Shown here: positions 20,848 to 51,953 of the stretch, piece by piece
How positions within the stretch are numbered: position 1 is the first letter of the stretch
How the letters are laid out: each line of letters starts with the position of its first letter
Assembly (NCBI GenBank): GCA_026413805.1
Contig: JAOAKE010000001.1
Location: 30,199 to 94,198 of the forward strand
DNA: 64,000 bases
Reading direction: 5' to 3'
Source of the DNA: Candidatus Micrarchaeota archaeon
GTDB taxonomy: Archaea; Micrarchaeota; Micrarchaeia; Anstonellales; Anstonellaceae
Program-made: the position numbers and the translations under genes
Notes under the pieces: model-generated
Databases searched by the model: none
The model's input: the letters and a program-made list of their open reading frames with translations, nothing else
Told to the model about the DNA's origin: nothing

Positions 20848-22155
20848 CCTCTTTGCAAACTCGCAAATGAATTCTTCCAGCCTTGAATAAGGGATGGTGG
20901 CGCCAGCTGCGATGTTGTGCCCGCCGCCTGCACCGCCTACTGCGCTGCTGCACTCAGAAACTACCTTTCCAAGGTTCAAACCCTCGCTGACAAGCTTCCT
21001 TGTGCCCCTTGTCGAAAGCTTTATGTTTCCGGACTCGTCCAGTGAAAGGGCAAGCACTGGCTTTTTTCTCTGGCCTGGGTAAAGCATGCCTGCGACTATC
21101 CCAATTATTGAGTCTGGGATTACTCCGCGGGCGTCTACCAAGATGAATTTCCCGAAGTCTTGGGCATGGCTGGCGGCAAATTCTATTCCCTCTTTGAGCC
21201 TCTTGCGATGCTCGGCGAGCAGTGCGCTTGCCTGCTGGTAAGCCCCTTCTTTTAGCAGGCAGACCTCCAGCCCTAGGTTGGCTTTGTTGTTTCTTCCACA
21301 GGCATTAAGCAAGGTTGCAAACTCAGATGCATCGCGAAGCTCGGTTCTTTTTGGCTGCTTAAGCAGGGTGAATACCTCGCCTGTCAGCCTTTTTGCAGCC
21401 TCAGGGGAAGCGCGGATTGCAAGAAGCTCGGCAAGCGCAGAAACCAGCCTTTTTTTCTCTTCAACTGCAAGGTCAGAGTATGTGCGCCAGTGCGGGCCTT
21501 CTTTTAGAGGGATTTCAAGGCTTGCAAGGAAATCTATGCATGCTTCTTCTTGGCCGCTGAGCCCTGGAAGGAACGGCTCGTCGGCATACAAAAGAAACTG
21601 CACGAGAGGGCGGCTGTGCCTGCCAAACAAAAGCAGGTCTTTTGAAACTGCCACCTCTCCTCTTTCCACTGCCTCGTCAAGCATTGCCCGGTTTAGGCTG
21701 CAAAATGGCTGCTGGATGTCTCCGACTGCGCCAACGACCCCCAAGTCAGCATGCACTCCGAAAACAAAATAGGCGCAGCCTGCTGCTGAAATCTCACTCC
21801 CCCCATCAAAGCCAAAGTGGTGGGGGTTGGCTTGCAGGTGGGAGGTGGTTGCGGGCTGGTGGTGGTCAATAATTACAACTTCGCCTTTAAGCTCATCTAC
21901 AATGGAAGTGCCACTTCCAAGGTCCGCAAAGATGATTTCTTTTTCACCTTTCAGGGAAGAAATAAGGCTTTGGTCCACCTTCCTTACATCTTTTGCCAAG
22001 TAGCGCTTGCCCTCACTTTCAAGCCAGGATGCAACTATTGCGCCTGCAGCAATGCCATCGCAATCATAGTGATGGATTACCAACGGCTGTGCCATTCTTT
22101 TGGCAGCTTCCCTCGCTTCTGCACAGCGCTCAAGAAATTTTTCGCGGTTTCCCAT
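20842..22155 (-). CDS. DHH-family phosphoesterase (archaeal RecJ/GAN-like nuclease)
   Basis: DHH motif region IHHYDCDGIAAGAI...IIDHH, DHHA1-like C-terminal GGGH motif (AVGGAGGGHNIAAGA). Confidence 0.7.
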   Translation of the reverse strand: MGNREKFLERCAEAREAAKRMAQPLVIHHYDCDGIAAGAIVASWLESEGKRYLAKDVRKVDQSLISSLKGEKEIIFADLGSGTSIVDELKGEVVIIDHHQPATTSHLQANPHHFGFDGGSEISAAGCAYFVFGVHADLGVVGAVGDIQQPFCSLNRAMLDEAVERGEVAVSKDLLLFGRHSRPLVQFLLYADEPFLPGLSGQEEACIDFLASLEIPLKEGPHWRTYSDLAVEEKKRLVSALAELLAIRASPEAAKRLTGEVFTLLKQPKRTELRDASEFATLLNACGRNNKANLGLEVCLLKEGAYQQASALLAEHRKRLKEGIEFAASHAQDFGKFILVDARGVIPDSIIGIVAGMLYPGQRKKPVLALSLDESGNIKLSTRGTRKLVSEGLNLGKVVSECSSAVGGAGGGHNIAAGATIPYSRLEEFICEFAKRL

Positions 22156-33178: not shown

Positions 33179-33253
33179 AGCGGGATAGGGTAGCTTGGAG
33201 TGCCCGCTGGGCTCATAACCCAGAGATCAGTGGTTCAAATCCACTTCCCGCTA
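33179..33253 (+). tRNA. initiator tRNA-Met (anticodon CAU)
   Basis: Hand-folded cloverleaf: acceptor AGCGGGA/UCCCGCU with A1:U72, D-stem GGGU/GCCC, anticodon stem CUGGG/CCCAG with three G:C pairs next to loop CUCAUAA, T-arm AGUGG-UUCAAAU-CCACU, discriminator A; CCA not encoded. Confidence 0.8.
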
Positions 33254-34841: not shown

Positions 34842-34937
34842 GGGCCCATAGCTCAGCTTGGTAGAGCGGTGGACTCTTAATCCACGTGTCGGGGGTTCGA
34901 ATGCAGCCTCAGGCTGCCGGCGCTCCCTCTGGGCCCG
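34842..34937 (+). tRNA. tRNA-Lys (anticodon CUU) interrupted by a ~22-nt non-canonical intron in the T-loop (position ~59/60)
   Basis: Acceptor GGGCCCA/UGGGCCC, D-arm GCUC-AGCUUGGUA-GAGC, anticodon arm GUGGA-CUCUUAA-UCCAC, T-stem GGGGG...CCCUC; between UUCGAA and U-CCCUC lies UGCAGCCUCAGGCUGCCGGCGC containing hairpin GCAGCC-UCA-GGCUGC. Confidence 0.7.
34902..34923 (+). other. predicted tRNA intron (T-loop, non-canonical position) within tRNA-Lys
   Basis: Removal restores a canonical 7-nt T-loop UUCGAAU and 74-nt mature tRNA; exact splice junction ambiguous by 1 nt because of repeated U. Confidence 0.55.
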
Positions 34938-37728: not shown

Positions 37729-38940
37729 ATGCTCTTCTCATCTGAAAAGCCGCAAAGACTCTCAGAAATAGCAGGCAACCAACCTGCCATGTCTGAGATA
37801 AAAAAATGGGCCGATGCTTGGGAAAAGGGAGGCGCACAAAAACCCCTTTTGATATTTGGCCCTCCAGGGACAGGAAAAACCTCCATAGCATACGCACTCG
37901 CATCCGAATATGGATGGGGAATTTTTGAGTTCAATGCCTCTGATTTGCGCGATGAGGCAGCAGCTGAGCGGTTTCTTGCAAATGCTTCCCTTTCAGGCAG
38001 CCTTTTTGGGAAAAGGAAGCTCATATTAATTGATGATGTAGACTCGCTTTCCCCCCAAGAAGACAAAGGAGGGCTAGCCGCAATCTCAAAAATAATTACT
38101 TCCTCCAAGCAGCCCACAATACTAACTGCTATTGACTATTACGACAAAAAGCTCCAAGGCATAAGGGGCAGCTGCACTCCTGTAAAGCTGCAAAGAGTCT
38201 ATTTGCCGACCATCCTCTCGCTCCTTAAAAAAATTGCAGCTAAACATAAAGTAGAAGTGAGCGAGAAAGACCTAGCAGCAGTGGCCTCTGCTTCTGGCGG
38301 CGATGTTCGCGCAGCCCTCAATGACTTGCAGGCCCGCAACCTGAGTGCAAGGCGGGACTCCCAAAAAAACATATTTGAAGTAGTTCGCGCCATCTTCAAG
38401 TCCAGCGCATATTCAGAGGCGCGCAGGGCAGCTTTTGATTCTGAAACCGAGCACGATACCCTCAAGCTCTGGATAGCAGAGAACATACCTGTAGAATATG
38501 AAAAGCCATTTGACATAGCAGAGGCATACAATTCCCTTTCGCGCGCAGATGTGTTCGACGGCAGGATACTAAAAAGGCAGTACTGGGGCTTTCTGCGCTA
38601 CTCCTCTGACCACATCTCAGCAGGAGTGGCGGTTGCAAAAAGCTCTCGTTATAGCAAGTTTTCCACTTATGCTTACCCGAACTATATCAAAGAGATGGGA
38701 GCAACCAAGTCCTCGCGCCAGCTGCGAAAGGCAATCTTGCGAAAAATCGCGCTTGCCTGCCACTGCTCAATGAGGCAAGCTGAAGCATACCTTTTCTTGC
38801 TTAACCTCCTTTCCTCAAAGGACGCACAAGGAACTGCAAAGTTTTTTGGATTTAACGAAGACGAGCTTCAATTCCTTGCATCCCTGCCTTCAAATGCTGC
38901 TGCCAGCAGGGGAGCAGGCAGGCAAAAAAGCGGAGGCTGA
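37729..38940 (+). CDS. rfcL: replication factor C large subunit
   Basis: W..W....KPLLIFGPPGTGKTSIAYALA...FNASD pattern, AAA+ core, sensor motifs; possible start at 37789. Confidence 0.8.
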   Translation: MLFSSEKPQRLSEIAGNQPAMSEIKKWADAWEKGGAQKPLLIFGPPGTGKTSIAYALASEYGWGIFEFNASDLRDEAAAERFLANASLSGSLFGKRKLILIDDVDSLSPQEDKGGLAAISKIITSSKQPTILTAIDYYDKKLQGIRGSCTPVKLQRVYLPTILSLLKKIAAKHKVEVSEKDLAAVASASGGDVRAALNDLQARNLSARRDSQKNIFEVVRAIFKSSAYSEARRAAFDSETEHDTLKLWIAENIPVEYEKPFDIAEAYNSLSRADVFDGRILKRQYWGFLRYSSDHISAGVAVAKSSRYSKFSTYAYPNYIKEMGATKSSRQLRKAILRKIALACHCSMRQAEAYLFLLNLLSSKDAQGTAKFFGFNEDELQFLASLPSNAAASRGAGRQKSGG

Positions 38941-38942
38941 AT

Positions 38943-39383
38943 ATGAAGCGGTTTCACCCGTCCCCGAAGAAAAAATGGGTGCAGGCGGCATGCATCCTCC
39001 TTTTTTTTGCTATCGTGATTTTTGCCCTTCCCATCCCGATGGATGCCACGCTGTCCTACACATCTTTCTTTTTTTTGGCGCTTGTTGTCCTCGCATCCGC
39101 CATGCTTGAGACAGCGCGCATGCTGCTTATCACCTACACCATGTCAGATGACGCAATAACAATGGAGAAGACATTTTTGTCCTCATTCAAGCACACCATC
39201 CCATTCAAAAGCATAGACAACATATTTACAAAAGCATCTGCGGTTGACAGGCTCTTGTCGCTGGCAGACGTCTATATAGACACGCCCGGGGGCTTTGGCT
39301 TTGAGATGGTGATGCATGACATCCCGCAAGAGGTGGCAGATGAGCTTCTTGCGGCAGTGAAAAAGGTAAAAGGTAGTGGTTAG
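38943..39383 (+). CDS. membrane protein with bacterial-type PH domain (bPH_2/YdbS-like)
   Basis: Two N-terminal TM helices followed by ~80-aa domain with IPFKSIDNI...VYIDTPGG pattern. Confidence 0.55.
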   Translation: MKRFHPSPKKKWVQAACILLFFAIVIFALPIPMDATLSYTSFFFLALVVLASAMLETARMLLITYTMSDDAITMEKTFLSSFKHTIPFKSIDNIFTKASAVDRLLSLADVYIDTPGGFGFEMVMHDIPQEVADELLAAVKKVKGSG

Positions 39384-39884
39384 ATGCTTGTTGAATCTAA
39401 GAAGAAAAAAGGGTTTTTTGAGGAAACGAACAATGAGCTTGCCTCTCTTTTTGCCGAGGCTGGCGCAGGGTTTTCGTTCCAAAAGCAGTTCCTTTTCCAC
39501 CCACTGGAAGCCGCCTATTTTGTTAAAATCGGAAAGGCAGCTTTCAAGGATTTCAAGACTTTTGAAAGCTTCCTGTCGCGCTGGAGGCAGAAAGACCCGT
39601 CATTTCCCTTTGCATTTTCAGTCTATTTTGCCATCCGCCAGACAGGAAGGCTCATCTATCCATACATGAAAAAAACGAACTTCTTTCGCGTCTATTCCCC
39701 CGGAGTTGGCAGGCAGGATTCCCGTCCTTCCCAACTGGTTTGCCTCTTGCCAGGGAAGTTTCCATCGCAAAAAACACTTGAGAACGAGGTAAGAGTTGCA
39801 CACCTTGCAAGGCTGGATTTGATAGTTGCATGCGGAACCCCGCAAAACATAAGGTTTTACAAAATCTCCAGCTTCAATTTCTAG
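39384..39884 (+). CDS. tRNA-splicing endonuclease family protein lacking catalytic His/Lys (putative structural/beta-type subunit)
   Basis: C-terminal block NFFRVYSPG...QLVCLL...RVAHLARLDLIVACG aligns with EndA catalytic-domain blocks GADFRLY / HS.YLV / RVAHSVRKKLLIA but His and Lys positions are substituted; N-terminal EAAYFVKIGK resembles EndA N-domain; ATG with AGGTAG RBS. Confidence 0.55.
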   Translation: MLVESKKKKGFFEETNNELASLFAEAGAGFSFQKQFLFHPLEAAYFVKIGKAAFKDFKTFESFLSRWRQKDPSFPFAFSVYFAIRQTGRLIYPYMKKTNFFRVYSPGVGRQDSRPSQLVCLLPGKFPSQKTLENEVRVAHLARLDLIVACGTPQNIRFYKISSFNF

Positions 39885-49019: not shown

Positions 49020-49613
49020 CTACAGCCCCCTCAGCTTCTCATCCATGAATCTCTTGATGTCATCCCCAACCAGCCAGGTTTGGACTCCTGCCCTGCTGCC
49101 TGCCAGCCTGTCCTCTTCATTGTCGCCTATAAAGATGGCTTGCCCCGGAGTTATTCTCAGCCTTTCGCAAGCAATTTTAAGCATGGTCGGGTCTGGCTTT
49201 GGGGGCGCATCAGCGCTTGTTATGACAGCTGAAAAATAATGCCTGATGCCGAGCCTCTCCAAAACCATGTTGGCGCTTGCCCTTCTATTGGTTGCAACTG
49301 CCAGCAGGTATCTTTTAGAAAGAGAAGGGACAGCCTCCACCACAGGAAGGGGGGAAATGAGGTGCAGGTTTTCGGCAGTGAGCTGTGAAAGGCGGGCCAA
49401 CATCTGCCTAAGCAGGGCACCGTTTCCCTTTAACTCTGGGGCAAGGGCGAGCAGAACTGTTTCTGCGCTGTGCGCAGACGACATCTTTTCTATCTTTTCG
49501 TCAGGGACTACAAAGCCAAACTCCCTCATAAGCTCGCGTGTATTGTGGACCACTGCCCTGCGCGAGTCAGCAAGCACCCCATCAATGTCAAATATTATCG
49601 CCTTTATTGCCAT
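49020..49613 (-). CDS. HAD-superfamily hydrolase (phosphoglycolate/beta-phosphoglucomutase-like subfamily IA)
   Basis: Motif I IFDIDGVLADS, motif III/IV GDNEEDRLAG. Confidence 0.75.
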   Translation of the reverse strand: MAIKAIIFDIDGVLADSRRAVVHNTRELMREFGFVVPDEKIEKMSSAHSAETVLLALAPELKGNGALLRQMLARLSQLTAENLHLISPLPVVEAVPSLSKRYLLAVATNRRASANMVLERLGIRHYFSAVITSADAPPKPDPTMLKIACERLRITPGQAIFIGDNEEDRLAGSRAGVQTWLVGDDIKRFMDEKLRGL

Positions 49614-50650
49614 TCAATCAGCCTTTTCTGTTCAGCCTCATAGTCCCTGCACAAAAGCACCACCCTTGAGGCAGGATGCCTCTCGCTTACAAGATAGCCG
49701 GTCTTTTCTGCAAGCCAGGCAGCAACCTTTTCTATTTCCTCCATTTTTAGCATGCTGTCCAATGATAGGCCCCTGCCTTGCATTCTTGCGCCACCTACAA
49801 AAACCATGCTTTTTACCTCCACATATTGCGGCCGGGCAAGCCCGATCTGCTTTGCATAGCCTTGCAGGTTGGCATCATTTGCCCCTCGCGCAAGAGTCAT
49901 GCGCAGCACAGTCCTGGTTTTCTTCCCAAGCGCAGGCATGAGCCGCAGCATCTTGAGGTATTTTTCCCACAACAAAGGCGAGGCAGGCCTTATTGCTTTT
50001 CTATAAGTCTCCTCGTCGCTTGCCACCATTGAAACGTAGAATTGTGTCGGGAAAGTTTCCCATTTCTCTACCCTCTCCGGAAATGTTCCATTCGTCACCA
50101 AGAACGTTGTCATGTTCCGCCTGTGGAATTCCCTAACAAGCCCTTCCAGATAGGGATACATCATCGGCTCACCTGTAAGGGAAATCGCAGCGTGCTTGGG
50201 ATTCATGGCCTGCTGGTACAGTTCCTTTGGCACCCCTCGGCTTCCCCCAAAGCCTGAGATAATCTCCTTTTGCGCTTTAATAAGCCCTTCAGCAATTTCC
50301 TCGGGGCTGTCCCACCTAAATTGCCCATCGGGAATTTCGGCAAACTGCACTTTTCTGTCAGGTATGAACCTCCAGCAGAAAACGCATGCATGGTTGCAAA
50401 ACAAAAGGGAAGGGGTGCATTGGAGGCATCGGTGCGAGGCAATCCCATAAAACTTGTTTTTGTAGCACCCTGCCCTCCTTTTTAGCATCTCCCCTGCCCA
50501 TTTGCACAGCTTGGCAGCAGAGTGCTCTCCTGCAAGGTGGTACTTCTGCCTGATGAGAAGCTTTAGCAGACTGTCGGGGATGGACTTGTTTAAAGCCCTG
50601 ACCCTCGCATAGTACTTGCTCTCCTCCAAATCCTTTCTGCGGCGCGCCAT
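49604..50650 (-). CDS. taw1: radical-SAM tRNA 4-demethylwyosine synthase (TYW1/Taw1)
   Basis: Radical SAM cluster CNHACVFCW plus upstream Cys cluster, TYW1-like length and pattern. Confidence 0.8.
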   Translation of the reverse strand: MARRRKDLEESKYYARVRALNKSIPDSLLKLLIRQKYHLAGEHSAAKLCKWAGEMLKRRAGCYKNKFYGIASHRCLQCTPSLLFCNHACVFCWRFIPDRKVQFAEIPDGQFRWDSPEEIAEGLIKAQKEIISGFGGSRGVPKELYQQAMNPKHAAISLTGEPMMYPYLEGLVREFHRRNMTTFLVTNGTFPERVEKWETFPTQFYVSMVASDEETYRKAIRPASPLLWEKYLKMLRLMPALGKKTRTVLRMTLARGANDANLQGYAKQIGLARPQYVEVKSMVFVGGARMQGRGLSLDSMLKMEEIEKVAAWLAEKTGYLVSERHPASRVVLLCRDYEAEQKRLIEWQ

Positions 50651-50765: not shown

Positions 50766-51953
50766 ATGGCAGTAAAAATAGAGTTTGACCCAAAAAAGAA
50801 AGAGCTGTTCGTCTCGGAGCCCGAGTCAGTTTCCTCTCTTGTAAATGGGCATTATGGGCATATGAAAAAGGGCACAATTTACCTATTCCCAGAGGAGGCG
50901 CTTTACCTGATGGACATACGCAATGCCAAGTGCTATGACCCAGCCTTTAACGAATACAAGTTCAACCAAGTCGCCTCTCATTTTCAAAGCAAAAAGCAGA
51001 TGGCCCGCTATTTTACTTACAAAGACTGGCGAGACCGCGGCTTAATTGCACGGCAAGTCTCTGAGATTTGCGAAAAATATGGCAGGAGCAATGTGAAAAA
51101 ATACCCCAGCGGAAGGCTGCAGCTTGACCGCTATGCGCTGCAGGGCAGGTTTTACCCAGATGACCTTTGGACGATAATTGATGACGAAGCTGTTGGAAAA
51201 GAGCTCTATGAGCGCTACTGGTTTGGCCAATTTGGCTCTTACAAGGCAGAGCAGCGTGGCAAGCTCTCCAAGCTGGACATATACGAAACCCTATTTTTAA
51301 TCAGGCACGCCAACCTCCACATAGAAAATGCGACTGAAGAGCAGGTCATAAAGGCAGCAAAGAGGCAGCACAAGTATTTCCTCAACCTATACGATGTTTA
51401 TGAAGACTGGCGGCTCAATGGGTTTGTGCTCAAAACAGGCTTCAAGTTCGGCACCCATTTCCGGCTATACATGCCTGGTGCCTCCCCTGTAAGGCAGGGA
51501 GACGAATGGATACACTCCAAGCACGTAATACACTGCTTTCCAAGGCAAAGCAAGCTGCTAATTTCAGAGTGGGCACGGGCAATTCGCGTTGCCCATTCTG
51601 TAAAAAAGACCTTTGTCCTTGCCATACCCGGCGAAAAAAAGGCAAAGAAGAAGAAAAAAGAGCAGCAGGAGCTTTTCACTAGCCTTGACTTTCTTCTCTA
51701 CCATCGTGCGCAAGGGGGGATAGAAAACCCCAAGACCGGAAAGCCAAAATACCTGATGTTTTCGCTCTCCGAAGAGGAGTATATCGGAGGTGAAGAGCTT
51801 GCAGATGCCATCGAGCAGTGCAAACGGATAGGGCTTGAGCTTCTGCTTGCAATATGCGACCGCGAAACCTCTGTAACCTATTATCTTGTCAAAAGGATTG
51901 AAGTGCCCGGCTCAAAATACGAGTATTACGAAATTGAGTGGGTGCAGCCGTAA
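50766..51953 (+). CDS. endA: tRNA-splicing endonuclease, multi-unit fused form (N-terminal pseudo-unit + catalytic unit + degenerate C-terminal unit)
   Basis: Catalytic unit KTGFKFGTHFRLY / HSKHVIHCF / RVAHSVKKTFVLAI retains Tyr-His-Lys triad; N-terminal region YFTYKDWRDRGLIARQ and C-terminal RIGLELLLAICDRETSVTYYLVKRI resemble additional EndA units; ATG 50766 confirmed. Confidence 0.8.
   Translation: MAVKIEFDPKKKELFVSEPESVSSLVNGHYGHMKKGTIYLFPEEALYLMDIRNAKCYDPAFNEYKFNQVASHFQSKKQMARYFTYKDWRDRGLIARQVSEICEKYGRSNVKKYPSGRLQLDRYALQGRFYPDDLWTIIDDEAVGKELYERYWFGQFGSYKAEQRGKLSKLDIYETLFLIRHANLHIENATEEQVIKAAKRQHKYFLNLYDVYEDWRLNGFVLKTGFKFGTHFRLYMPGASPVRQGDEWIHSKHVIHCFPRQSKLLISEWARAIRVAHSVKKTFVLAIPGEKKAKKKKKEQQELFTSLDFLLYHRAQGGIENPKTGKPKYLMFSLSEEEYIGGEELADAIEQCKRIGLELLLAICDRETSVTYYLVKRIEVPGSKYEYYEIEWVQP

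Follow-up and report, generated by a model that had tools for sequence, protein, structure and literature searches.

A very probable epsilon2-type tRNA-splicing endonuclease of a Micrarchaeota archaeon and a single-unit EndA-like paralogue in the same window

A 64,000-nucleotide stretch of DNA from a Candidatus Micrarchaeota archaeon (the window; contig JAOAKE010000001.1 of assembly GCA_026413805.1, positions 30,199 to 94,198) contains an open reading frame whose product carries more than one EndA-like unit, and a second EndA-like gene lies in the same window. The locus raises the question of which type of tRNA-splicing endonuclease is encoded here and what the second gene may contribute to it. 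The product had been described, in a sequence-only reading, as a 395-aa protein with one intact catalytic unit, flanked by an N-terminal and a C-terminal EndA-like segment without catalytic residues. The gene very probably encodes a Micrarchaeota EndA (tRNA-intron lyase) of the epsilon2 type (alphaN-alpha-betaC). The enzyme belongs, as an ordinary member, to a class already described and crystallised from Ca. Micrarchaeum acidiphilum ARMAN-2 (Fujishima 2011, PMC3239211; Hirata 2012, PMC3488258; Miyata 2025, PMC12397907), for which structures of the apo enzyme (PDB 4FZ2) and of a complex with BHB RNA (9W2K) are available.

The coding sequence occupies 50766..51953 on the plus strand, from an ATG at 50766 to a stop codon at 51951-51953, and encodes 395 aa; a Shine-Dalgarno-like GGTGA motif is located 4 nt upstream of the ATG. 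A TTG start at 50616 (445 aa) is mechanically possible; it was ruled out in favour of the ATG because homologues of ~390-400 aa (lengths 386-400 aa) align from residue 1 of the 395-aa protein. A protein with 100% identity is already present in NCBI under the name 'tRNA-intron lyase' from Ca. Micrarchaeota archaeon. In a phmmer search against the PDB, residues 4-395 aligned to residues 4-387 of the ARMAN-2 enzyme (4fz2_A, E 9e-133), and the identity to ARMAN-2 EndA (4fz2/9w2k) is 52% overall and 60% in the alpha unit. The 395-aa protein is a full-length orthologue of the ARMAN-2 epsilon2-type EndA. As the orthologue of a structurally and biochemically characterised class that NCBI has already annotated, the gene matters little when taken alone.

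The single chain follows the epsilon2 order of alphaN, alpha and betaC joined by two linkers, as seen in the alignment, the superposition and the domain layout. The alphaN unit (residues 1-96, 50766..51053, plus strand), whose boundaries were carried over from ARMAN-2 residues 2-97 via the phmmer alignment, comprises the N-terminal subdomain and the first helix and strand of the catalytic subdomain, and it stops there, before the catalytic elements. Linker 1 (residues 97-124, 51054..51137, plus strand; carried over from ARMAN-2 residues 98-125) is the least conserved segment, with 21% identity to ARMAN-2. The catalytic alpha unit (residues 125-287, 51138..51626, plus strand) is matched by Pfam tRNA_int_endo and by TIGR00324 endA, the latter on residues 171-289. 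It is followed by the Lys-rich linker 2 (residues 288-308, EKKAKKKKKEQQ, 51627..51689, plus strand), a gap in the phmmer alignment that is 9 residues longer than the ARMAN-2 counterpart and where the AlphaFold2 (AF2) pLDDT falls below 50 at residues 296-299. The betaC unit (residues 309-395, 51690..51950, plus strand) is a structural C-subdomain with the L10-loop D365 and the RNA-binding W392.

More than one EndA unit is also counted by Pfam, with two stretches of tRNA_int_endo (best 205-289, E 4e-28) and two of tRNA_int_endo_N (best 17-50, E 9e-9), and the flanking regions gave no match to unrelated families. Residues ~287-379 give a faint signal of Sen15 or the beta subunit, with Sen15 below the Pfam cut-off and the NCBIfam 'subunit beta' matches on 323-379 weak and far under the curated cut-offs. 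Comparison of sub-alignments with hhalign aligned alphaN residues 80-96 to alpha-unit residues 207-223 (E 3.9e-5) and betaC residues 343-363 to alpha-unit residues 267-287; no similarity to the alpha N-subdomain was found for either alphaN or betaC (E 0.2-0.25). The internal repeats are thus limited to two short segments, and the three EndA-like units rest mainly on Pfam, the PDB match and the fold.

The fold is that of epsilon2. The AF2 monomer model (pLDDT 88.9, pTM 0.86) superposes on 4fz2_A and 9w2k_B with TM 0.92-0.95 and rmsd 2.1-2.2 A (on 4fz2, TM 0.92/0.94 over 397 columns), as against TM 0.49-0.63 to alpha'2 and (alpha-beta) fusion structures. The crystal structure 4FZ2 shows alphaN and betaC sharing one beta-sheet and forming a single split structural unit, and therefore the epsilon2 enzyme has four unit-equivalents, like all other EndAs. 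The C-terminal segment had been taken for an extra unit relative to the alpha'2 type; this count has to be corrected, since epsilon2 is a catalytic unit inserted inside a structural unit.

The Tyr/His/Lys triad is found only in the central alpha unit (Y235, 51468-51470; H250, 51513-51515; K281, 51606-51608; plus strand), and betaC has Leu357 at the position of the catalytic Lys, in agreement with the catalytic centre and inactive flanks first proposed. The alpha unit also carries the pocket K223 and the RNA-binding R274. The ARMAN-type specific loop (ASL; residues 157-167, GSYKAEQRGKL, 51234..51266, plus strand) includes the conserved Tyr-Lys pair Y159/K160 and aligns to ARMAN-2 G158-L168 (GTYKVSEHGNL). 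The ARMAN-2 residues Y160, K161, K224, Y236 and H251 correspond to Y159, K160, K223, Y235 and H250 of the window enzyme, and R275, K282, D357 and W384 to R274, K281, D365 and W392. None of these nine window residues varies among 42 homologues, whose identity is 64-90%; the mean column identity of the homologue alignment is 64%, and each of the three units contributes to its ~120 invariant positions.

The roles of these residues in ARMAN-2 were shown by mutants of the triad, K161, K224E and D357A, with further support from the RNA complex. For example, K161 is essential and gives the broad specificity, with Y160 and K161 both conserved, and the pocket and L10 mutants (K224E, D357A) lose both dimer and activity, D357A abolishing them. 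By homology, the window enzyme would form a dimer in which Asp365, on the acidic L10 loop of one protomer's betaC, reaches into the basic alpha pocket (Lys223) of the other protomer. Likewise, the flipped base of the bulge would be clamped between Arg274 and Trp392, and Tyr159 and Lys160 of the ASL would hold the phosphate adjoining the bulge; this hold is proposed to open the enzyme to relaxed BHB motifs and to non-canonical intron positions. The homodimer is thus predicted from the conserved interface residues and the 4FZ2 and 9W2K structures, and catalysis and broad specificity are expected by analogy with a homologue of 52% identity.

The enzyme resembles ARMAN-2 epsilon2 in length (395 vs 387-390 aa), in the order alphaN-linker-alpha-linker-betaC, and in the triad, ASL Tyr-Lys, pocket Lys, L10 Asp and Arg/Trp RNA clamp, which are identical. 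It differs from it in the two linkers and in lineage, the relatives of the window being labelled Anstonellaceae or Micrarchaeia and the window having ~48% GC. The (alpha-beta)2 enzymes of Crenarchaeota and Nanoarchaeum (Aeropyrum pernix 3P1Z/3AJV, N. equitans 3IEY, P. aerophilum 2ZYZ) have the broad specificity expected of the window enzyme, which extends to relaxed BHB motifs and introns of non-canonical type and is achieved through the Lys of an extra loop near the active site (CSL there, ASL here); they share the Trp as the second residue of the RNA clamp, and the betaC of the window enzyme resembles the C-subdomain of their beta subunit. The two loops have no sequence similarity beyond the Lys, and the published interpretation is convergence. 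However, alpha and beta are encoded there by separate genes, whereas the window enzyme is one uninterrupted frame, kept so in 80 loci. The alpha4 type, with Methanocaldococcus jannaschii (1A79) as the single-unit prototype, is a homotetramer of a ~175-aa catalytic subunit that cuts strict BHB motifs; the alpha unit of the window enzyme aligns to it with E 2e-15.

The second EndA-like gene, at 39384..39884 on the plus strand, had also been noticed from the sequence and is indeed an open reading frame, of 166 aa, predicted to be non-catalytic. Tyr104 is kept, while the Lys is replaced by Leu144 and R-P-S occupies the place of the His, so that the fold and length of an alpha4 subunit are present without its intact triad. 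The family profile matches A. fulgidus EndA (E 2.6e-16), and the AF2 model (pLDDT 90.2) has M. jannaschii alpha4 EndA as its best structural match (TM 0.80). The protein is alpha-like over its full length and is closer to euryarchaeal alpha'2 and alpha4 enzymes than to the alpha unit of its own genome. It is retained in 82 homologues of 40-66% identity with 18 invariant residues, which include R102, Y104, G107, G109 and R110; a number of the invariant residues are Arg of the loop that follows the retained active-site Tyr. Such a degenerate single-unit paralogue finds no mention in the epsilon2 and ARMAN-2 literature that was text-searched (PMC3239211, PMC12397907, PMC6379350).

Epsilon2 has been proposed to have taken the place of an ancestral alpha4 endonuclease (PMC3239211). 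The paralogue could be a remnant of that alpha4 enzyme, re-used as a non-catalytic subunit with an accessory or RNA-binding role, in a fifth EndA composition that combines epsilon with an alpha-like pseudo-subunit, or as an independent BHB-RNA-binding factor, which is an unlikely reading at present. Its presence beside epsilon2 in one clade could nevertheless inform the replacement of alpha4 by epsilon2 or reveal a new accessory subunit.

A related possibility bears directly on the enzyme itself, namely that the paralogue joins the epsilon protein as a structural or specificity subunit, or replaces one of its structural elements, and that the active enzyme has a new subunit composition. Inactive partners with the EndA fold do have precedents, in the archaeal beta subunit and in eukaryotic Sen15 and Sen54. 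The complete and confidently predicted fold of the paralogue and its retention among homologues would suit such a role, as would the occurrence of the two genes on the same contigs (in JBAYHU010000004.1, for example, the paralogue lies at ~59.9 kb and the epsilon gene at ~73.5 kb). Contigs of 95120, 40688, 72638, 192341, 16396 and 180697 nt recur among the homologues of both proteins. However, the epsilon protomer holds every element required for assembly, with the homodimer residues K223 and D365 invariant, and the ARMAN-2 epsilon2 shows full in-vitro activity without any partner. A distance of 11-14 kb separates the two genes, which share no operon, and among the neighbours of the paralogue (an RFC-like AAA protein, a bPH protein, a Zn-ribbon protein and a PRPP synthase) no RNA-processing gene or operon link to one was found. 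Furthermore, the loop of the window paralogue at the likely L10-equivalent position, placed by eye, reads GTPQN and lacks an acidic residue; the paralogue is not the contact partner of the L10 pocket, a role supplied by betaC. A mixed enzyme is therefore distinctly improbable, and the predicted epsilon2 homodimer is the preferred reading.

The protein might also be an alpha'2-type EndA (two tandem units) whose C-terminal extension is unrelated or degenerate, which would make its specificity narrow and limited to strict BHB motifs. The alpha'2 enzymes (A. fulgidus 1R0V/2GJW; Thermoplasma acidophilum 2OHC) are likewise one-chain homodimers with four unit-equivalents (a catalytic and a structural one in each chain), the same triad and the same logic of the L10 pocket; the NCBIfam PRK09300 models for this type match in part (E 3e-33), and Foldseek aligned ~320 columns to A. 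fulgidus alpha'2. The PRK09300 scores are nevertheless 39-115 bits against curated cut-offs of 292-518. An alpha'2 chain consists of two complete tandem repeats, the structural one first and the catalytic one C-terminal, whereas here the catalytic unit is central (125-287), lies between the halves of the structural unit and is followed by the 87-residue betaC, which has an invariant L10 Asp and an invariant RNA-binding Trp. Similarly, alpha'2 has no ASL and cuts strict BHB motifs only, but the window enzyme has this loop with Y159/K160, and insertion of an ASL turns A. fulgidus EndA into a broad-specificity enzyme. The alignment to 4fz2 and the superposition effectively refute an alpha'2 enzyme with an extension, which retains a very slight likelihood.

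The epsilon2 architecture has also proved to be widespread. Relatives were found in at least 583 species-representative genomes, and the best 80 of these match the whole or nearly the whole of residues 1-395 and carry, with few exceptions, the label Micrarchaeota; the uninterrupted ~390-aa form recurs across more than 120 protein clusters and, in data from many studies, at 80 independent genome loci. The likeness to fused enzymes of small-genome archaea holds, in that the protein corresponds to the epsilon2 of ARMAN-2 (PMC3239211, PMC3488258), but the rarity first attributed to this architecture does not. The usual EndA of Micrarchaeota thus seems to be epsilon2, which had been described in print from one or two ARMAN genomes, and the residues of its mechanism are all invariant. 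This conservation refutes the idea that the three-unit frame arose artificially in assembly or annotation, or belongs to a pseudogene in decay, with separate alpha and beta genes fused by a sequencing error, which the origin of the window in a metagenome-assembled genome (MAG) and the A-rich, low-complexity coding stretch of linker 2 might suggest and which, against the invariant positions in all three units and two crystal structures of the ARMAN-2 orthologue, has next to no chance of being correct.

The window also contains a probable substrate. [quoted passage not shown] Removal of the 22 nt leaves a 74-nt product with a perfect cloverleaf and the T-loop UUCGAAU. A candidate hBHBh' motif at the intron has an energy of -41.8 kcal/mol against -46.5 kcal/mol for the minimum-free-energy fold, and its central helix contains one U.C mismatch. 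ARMAN-2 epsilon2 cleaves the 59/60 intron of pre-tRNA-Cys in vitro, and the tRNA-Lys(CUU) intron is probably cleaved by the window endonuclease.

The Rfam tRNA match to this gene (26.1 bits) is below threshold because the T-arm is interrupted, and ARAGORN, with the intron mode on or off, reported only a tRNA-Met in the window. Relaxing the Rfam search to E<=1 over the window added, besides the interrupted tRNA-Lys, only an alpha_tmRNA match at 21247..21451, which is noise (12-21 bits, inside a 437-aa frame). Substrates with non-canonical introns thus escape the standard tRNA finders, so that too few tRNAs are called in such MAGs. When metagenomes were scanned for BHB covariation with a 26-nt pattern from the tRNA-Lys exons, 13 loci and no relatives of the intron-bearing gene were returned; all 13 are tRNA-Lys(CUU) genes that lack an intron, come from unrelated organisms, differ in the acceptor stem and encode the CCA. 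In the 80 related loci, the intron mode of ARAGORN called introns in 23 of 34 tRNAs, a mode that over-calls (one intron of 948 nt), so that this fraction is only a hint of intron-rich relatives.

As for the gene neighbourhood, a radical-SAM enzyme of wyosine formation (Taw1/TYW1-like tRNA modification; Pfam Radical_SAM and Wyosine_form) is encoded at 49604..50650 on the minus strand and is transcribed divergently from the endonuclease. The same arrangement occurs in 25 of the 80 related loci; in a 26th, Taw1 lies nearby but is arranged differently.

The gene at 50766..51953 (+) encodes a tRNA-splicing endonuclease (EndA) of 395 aa and is a further case of a well-characterised kind, the epsilon2-type enzyme. 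Its reading frame is uninterrupted, with an ATG at 50766, shortly after a GGTGA motif, and a stop codon at 51951-51953. A mechanically extended start at TTG 50616 was rejected, as the homologues are 386-400 aa long and align from residue 1 of the ATG-initiated protein. In Pfam, tRNA_int_endo matched two stretches (best 205-289, E 4e-28), tRNA_int_endo_N likewise two stretches (17-50), and Sen15 gave a weak, sub-threshold match on 287-376. NCBIfam placed TIGR00324 (endA) at 171-289; its 'subunit beta' models matched 323-379 weakly, far under the curated cut-offs. From this layout, the intact catalytic unit with non-catalytic EndA-like pieces on either side, as described in the sequence-only reading, is therefore present, and that interpretation is supported with two corrections, one on the split structural unit and the other on how common the architecture is.

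The closest known structure was found by a PDB sequence search, with a full-length match to 4fz2_A (E 8.8e-133, query 4-395 against chain 4-387). This chain, whose sequence also occurs in 9w2k, is the splicing endonuclease of epsilon2 type from Candidatus Micrarchaeum acidiphilum ARMAN-2. Overall identity between the two proteins is 52%, higher in alpha (60%) and betaC (56%) and lower in alphaN (44%) and linker 1 (21%). An AlphaFold2 model built with 42 homologues (mean pLDDT 88.9, pTM 0.86) superposed on 4fz2_A and 9w2k_B with a TM of 0.92-0.95 and an rmsd of 2.1-2.2 A. After these came the M. kandleri fusion and the A. fulgidus alpha'2 enzyme, with a TM of only 0.49-0.63.

The unit boundaries were carried over from the ARMAN-2 crystal-structure description through the PDB alignment. 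On the + strand, they are alphaN (residues 1-96, 50766..51053), linker 1 (97-124, 51054..51137), alpha (125-287, 51138..51626), linker 2 (288-308, 51627..51689) and betaC (309-395, 51690..51950). Comparison of sub-alignment profiles related alphaN 80-96 to alpha 207-223 (E 3.9e-5), the opening helix and strand of its catalytic subdomain, and betaC 343-363 to alpha 267-287, the helix-strand bearing the catalytic Lys, whose position in betaC is taken by Leu357. In the ARMAN-2 crystal structure, alphaN strand beta6, beta7 of linker 1 and the five betaC strands form one sheet. Therefore, alphaN and betaC are the two halves of one structural pseudo-unit, split by the insertion of the catalytic unit, and not, as first proposed, an arrangement with an extra C-terminal unit relative to alpha'2. 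Consequently, the enzyme has four unit-equivalents, a number equal to that of alpha4, alpha'2 and (alpha-beta)2.

All the residues with an experimental role in ARMAN-2 are present in the protein and invariant across 42 homologues (64-90% identity). These include the catalytic triad Y235, H250 and K281 (ARMAN-2 Y236, H251, K282), the RNA clamp R274 and W392 (R275, W384), Y159 and K160 in the loop GSYKAEQRGKL of the ARMAN-type specific loop, ASL (Y160, K161), K223 of the pocket (K224) and D365 of the L10 loop (D357). By homology with ARMAN-2, and with these residues checked here, two epsilon protomers would dimerise by the contact of L10 (D365) with the pocket (K223) together with beta-beta interactions. 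The two active sites of the dimer would cut both 3-nt bulges of the BHB motif, the flipped bulge base being presumably sandwiched by R274 and W392. The ASL would bind beside the bulge, so that relaxed BHB motifs and introns in non-canonical places could be accepted. Compared with ARMAN-2 EndA, linker 2 is 9 residues longer and Lys-rich (EKKAKKKKKEQQ); it is predicted to be disordered (pLDDT <50 at 296-299), and a part in RNA binding is conceivable. Linkers rich in Lys recur in the clade consensus.

The sequence-only reading took the fused architecture to be rare. However, a search of one genome per GTDB species found at least 583 stretches encoding relatives, of which the best 80 span all or almost all of residues 1-395 and are nearly all labelled Micrarchaeota, Micrarchaeia, Anstonellaceae, Burarchaeum, Fermentimicrarchaeum or Bilamarchaeum; thus, the three-piece architecture is common among recovered Micrarchaeota genomes. 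Likewise, the best 120 protein clusters (63-100% identity) are mostly full-length at ~385-425 aa, with a few truncated. An identical NCBI entry, from a 95,120-nt contig, is named 'MAG: tRNA-intron lyase [Candidatus Micrarchaeota archaeon]'. A Taw1/TYW1-like radical-SAM gene for wyosine formation (49604..50650, -) lies divergent from the EndA gene across 115 bp. This divergent pairing occurs in 25 of 80 related loci, with Taw1 identity down to 42%, and in a 26th (L072) Taw1 is nearby on the same strand; the two genes may form a small neighbourhood for tRNA maturation. Downstream are genes for FBPase and an aldolase of the DeoC family.

Only a degenerate paralogue and an interrupted tRNA-Lys(CUU) go beyond the epsilon2 literature searched. 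The paralogue (39384..39884, +; 166 aa), annotated by NCBI as a hypothetical protein, has an EndA fold. Pfam with this protein alone stayed under threshold (E 0.004). It has 82 homologues, all of ~165 aa, and the family profile matched the EndA of A. fulgidus (E 2.6e-16), M. jannaschii (4e-9) and ARMAN-2 (3e-8). Its model (pLDDT 90.2) is most similar to the M. jannaschii alpha4 subunit (TM 0.80). The active-site Tyr is retained (Y104, in FRVY), while the catalytic His is replaced by R-P-S and the Lys by Leu144. In an exhaustive search with the family profile, just 6 cluster representatives reached E<=1e-30; behind them came more distant proteins of a single unit, of which a few keep the His and several the Lys. 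The paralogue shares contigs with the epsilon genes, at a distance of 11-14 kb, and stands after RFC-like AAA and before PRPP synthase in a conserved block. Here, a bPH_2-domain membrane protein of 146 aa (38943..39383, +) is encoded without gaps between the RFC-like AAA ATPase (37729..38940, +) and the paralogue; in the relatives L014, L094 and L096, the paralogue directly follows the AAA gene. A word search of PMC3239211, PMC12397907 and PMC6379350 found no mention of such a protein. According to a proposal in the ARMAN-2 work, epsilon2 took the place of an ancestral alpha4 enzyme (PMC3239211). Speculatively, the paralogue might be a degenerate alpha4 remnant, which would fit that replacement.

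The unannotated tRNA-Lys(CUU) (34842..34937, +), a probable substrate of the endonuclease, was read from a sub-threshold Rfam match and the sequence. In the 64-kb window, ARAGORN and Rfam at the gathering threshold reported tRNA-Met (33179..33253) alone, and ARAGORN did not detect the tRNA-Lys. A permissive Rfam search matched 34842..34899 without the T-arm (26.1 bits, gathering threshold 29). Another sub-threshold match, alpha_tmRNA at 21247..21451 (+; 12-21 bits), lies inside a minus-strand 437-aa ORF and was judged noise. The tRNA-Lys has an acceptor stem GGGCCCA/TGGGCCC, a D-arm, an anticodon arm with the loop CTCTTAA and a T-stem GGGGG/CCCTC, and its T-loop TTCGAA|T is split by a 22-nt intron (34902..34923). 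Its removal leaves a 74-nt RNA with a perfect cloverleaf fold. The region can be drawn as a near-strict hBHBh' motif, in which h is the T-stem, h' a 6-bp hairpin, the central helix UUCG/CGGC (3 base pairs and one U.C mismatch) and the bulges AAU and GCU. Each candidate cleavage site follows the second bulge nucleotide, restoring UUCGAAU, and this arrangement lies 4.7 kcal/mol higher than the minimum-free-energy structure. [quoted passage not shown] In ARMAN-2, the pre-tRNA-Cys has an intron at 59/60 that epsilon2 cleaves in vitro, and tRNA-Pro has two T-loop introns, one of them at 59/60. A metagenome scan for relatives found only intron-less tRNA-Lys genes from unrelated organisms. ARAGORN in intron mode on loci L001-L080 (~1.2 Mb of related Micrarchaeota) suggests intron-rich tRNA sets, with introns in 23 of 34 tRNAs; the calls include implausible ones, such as a 948-nt intron, and many are placed at the canonical position or close to it.
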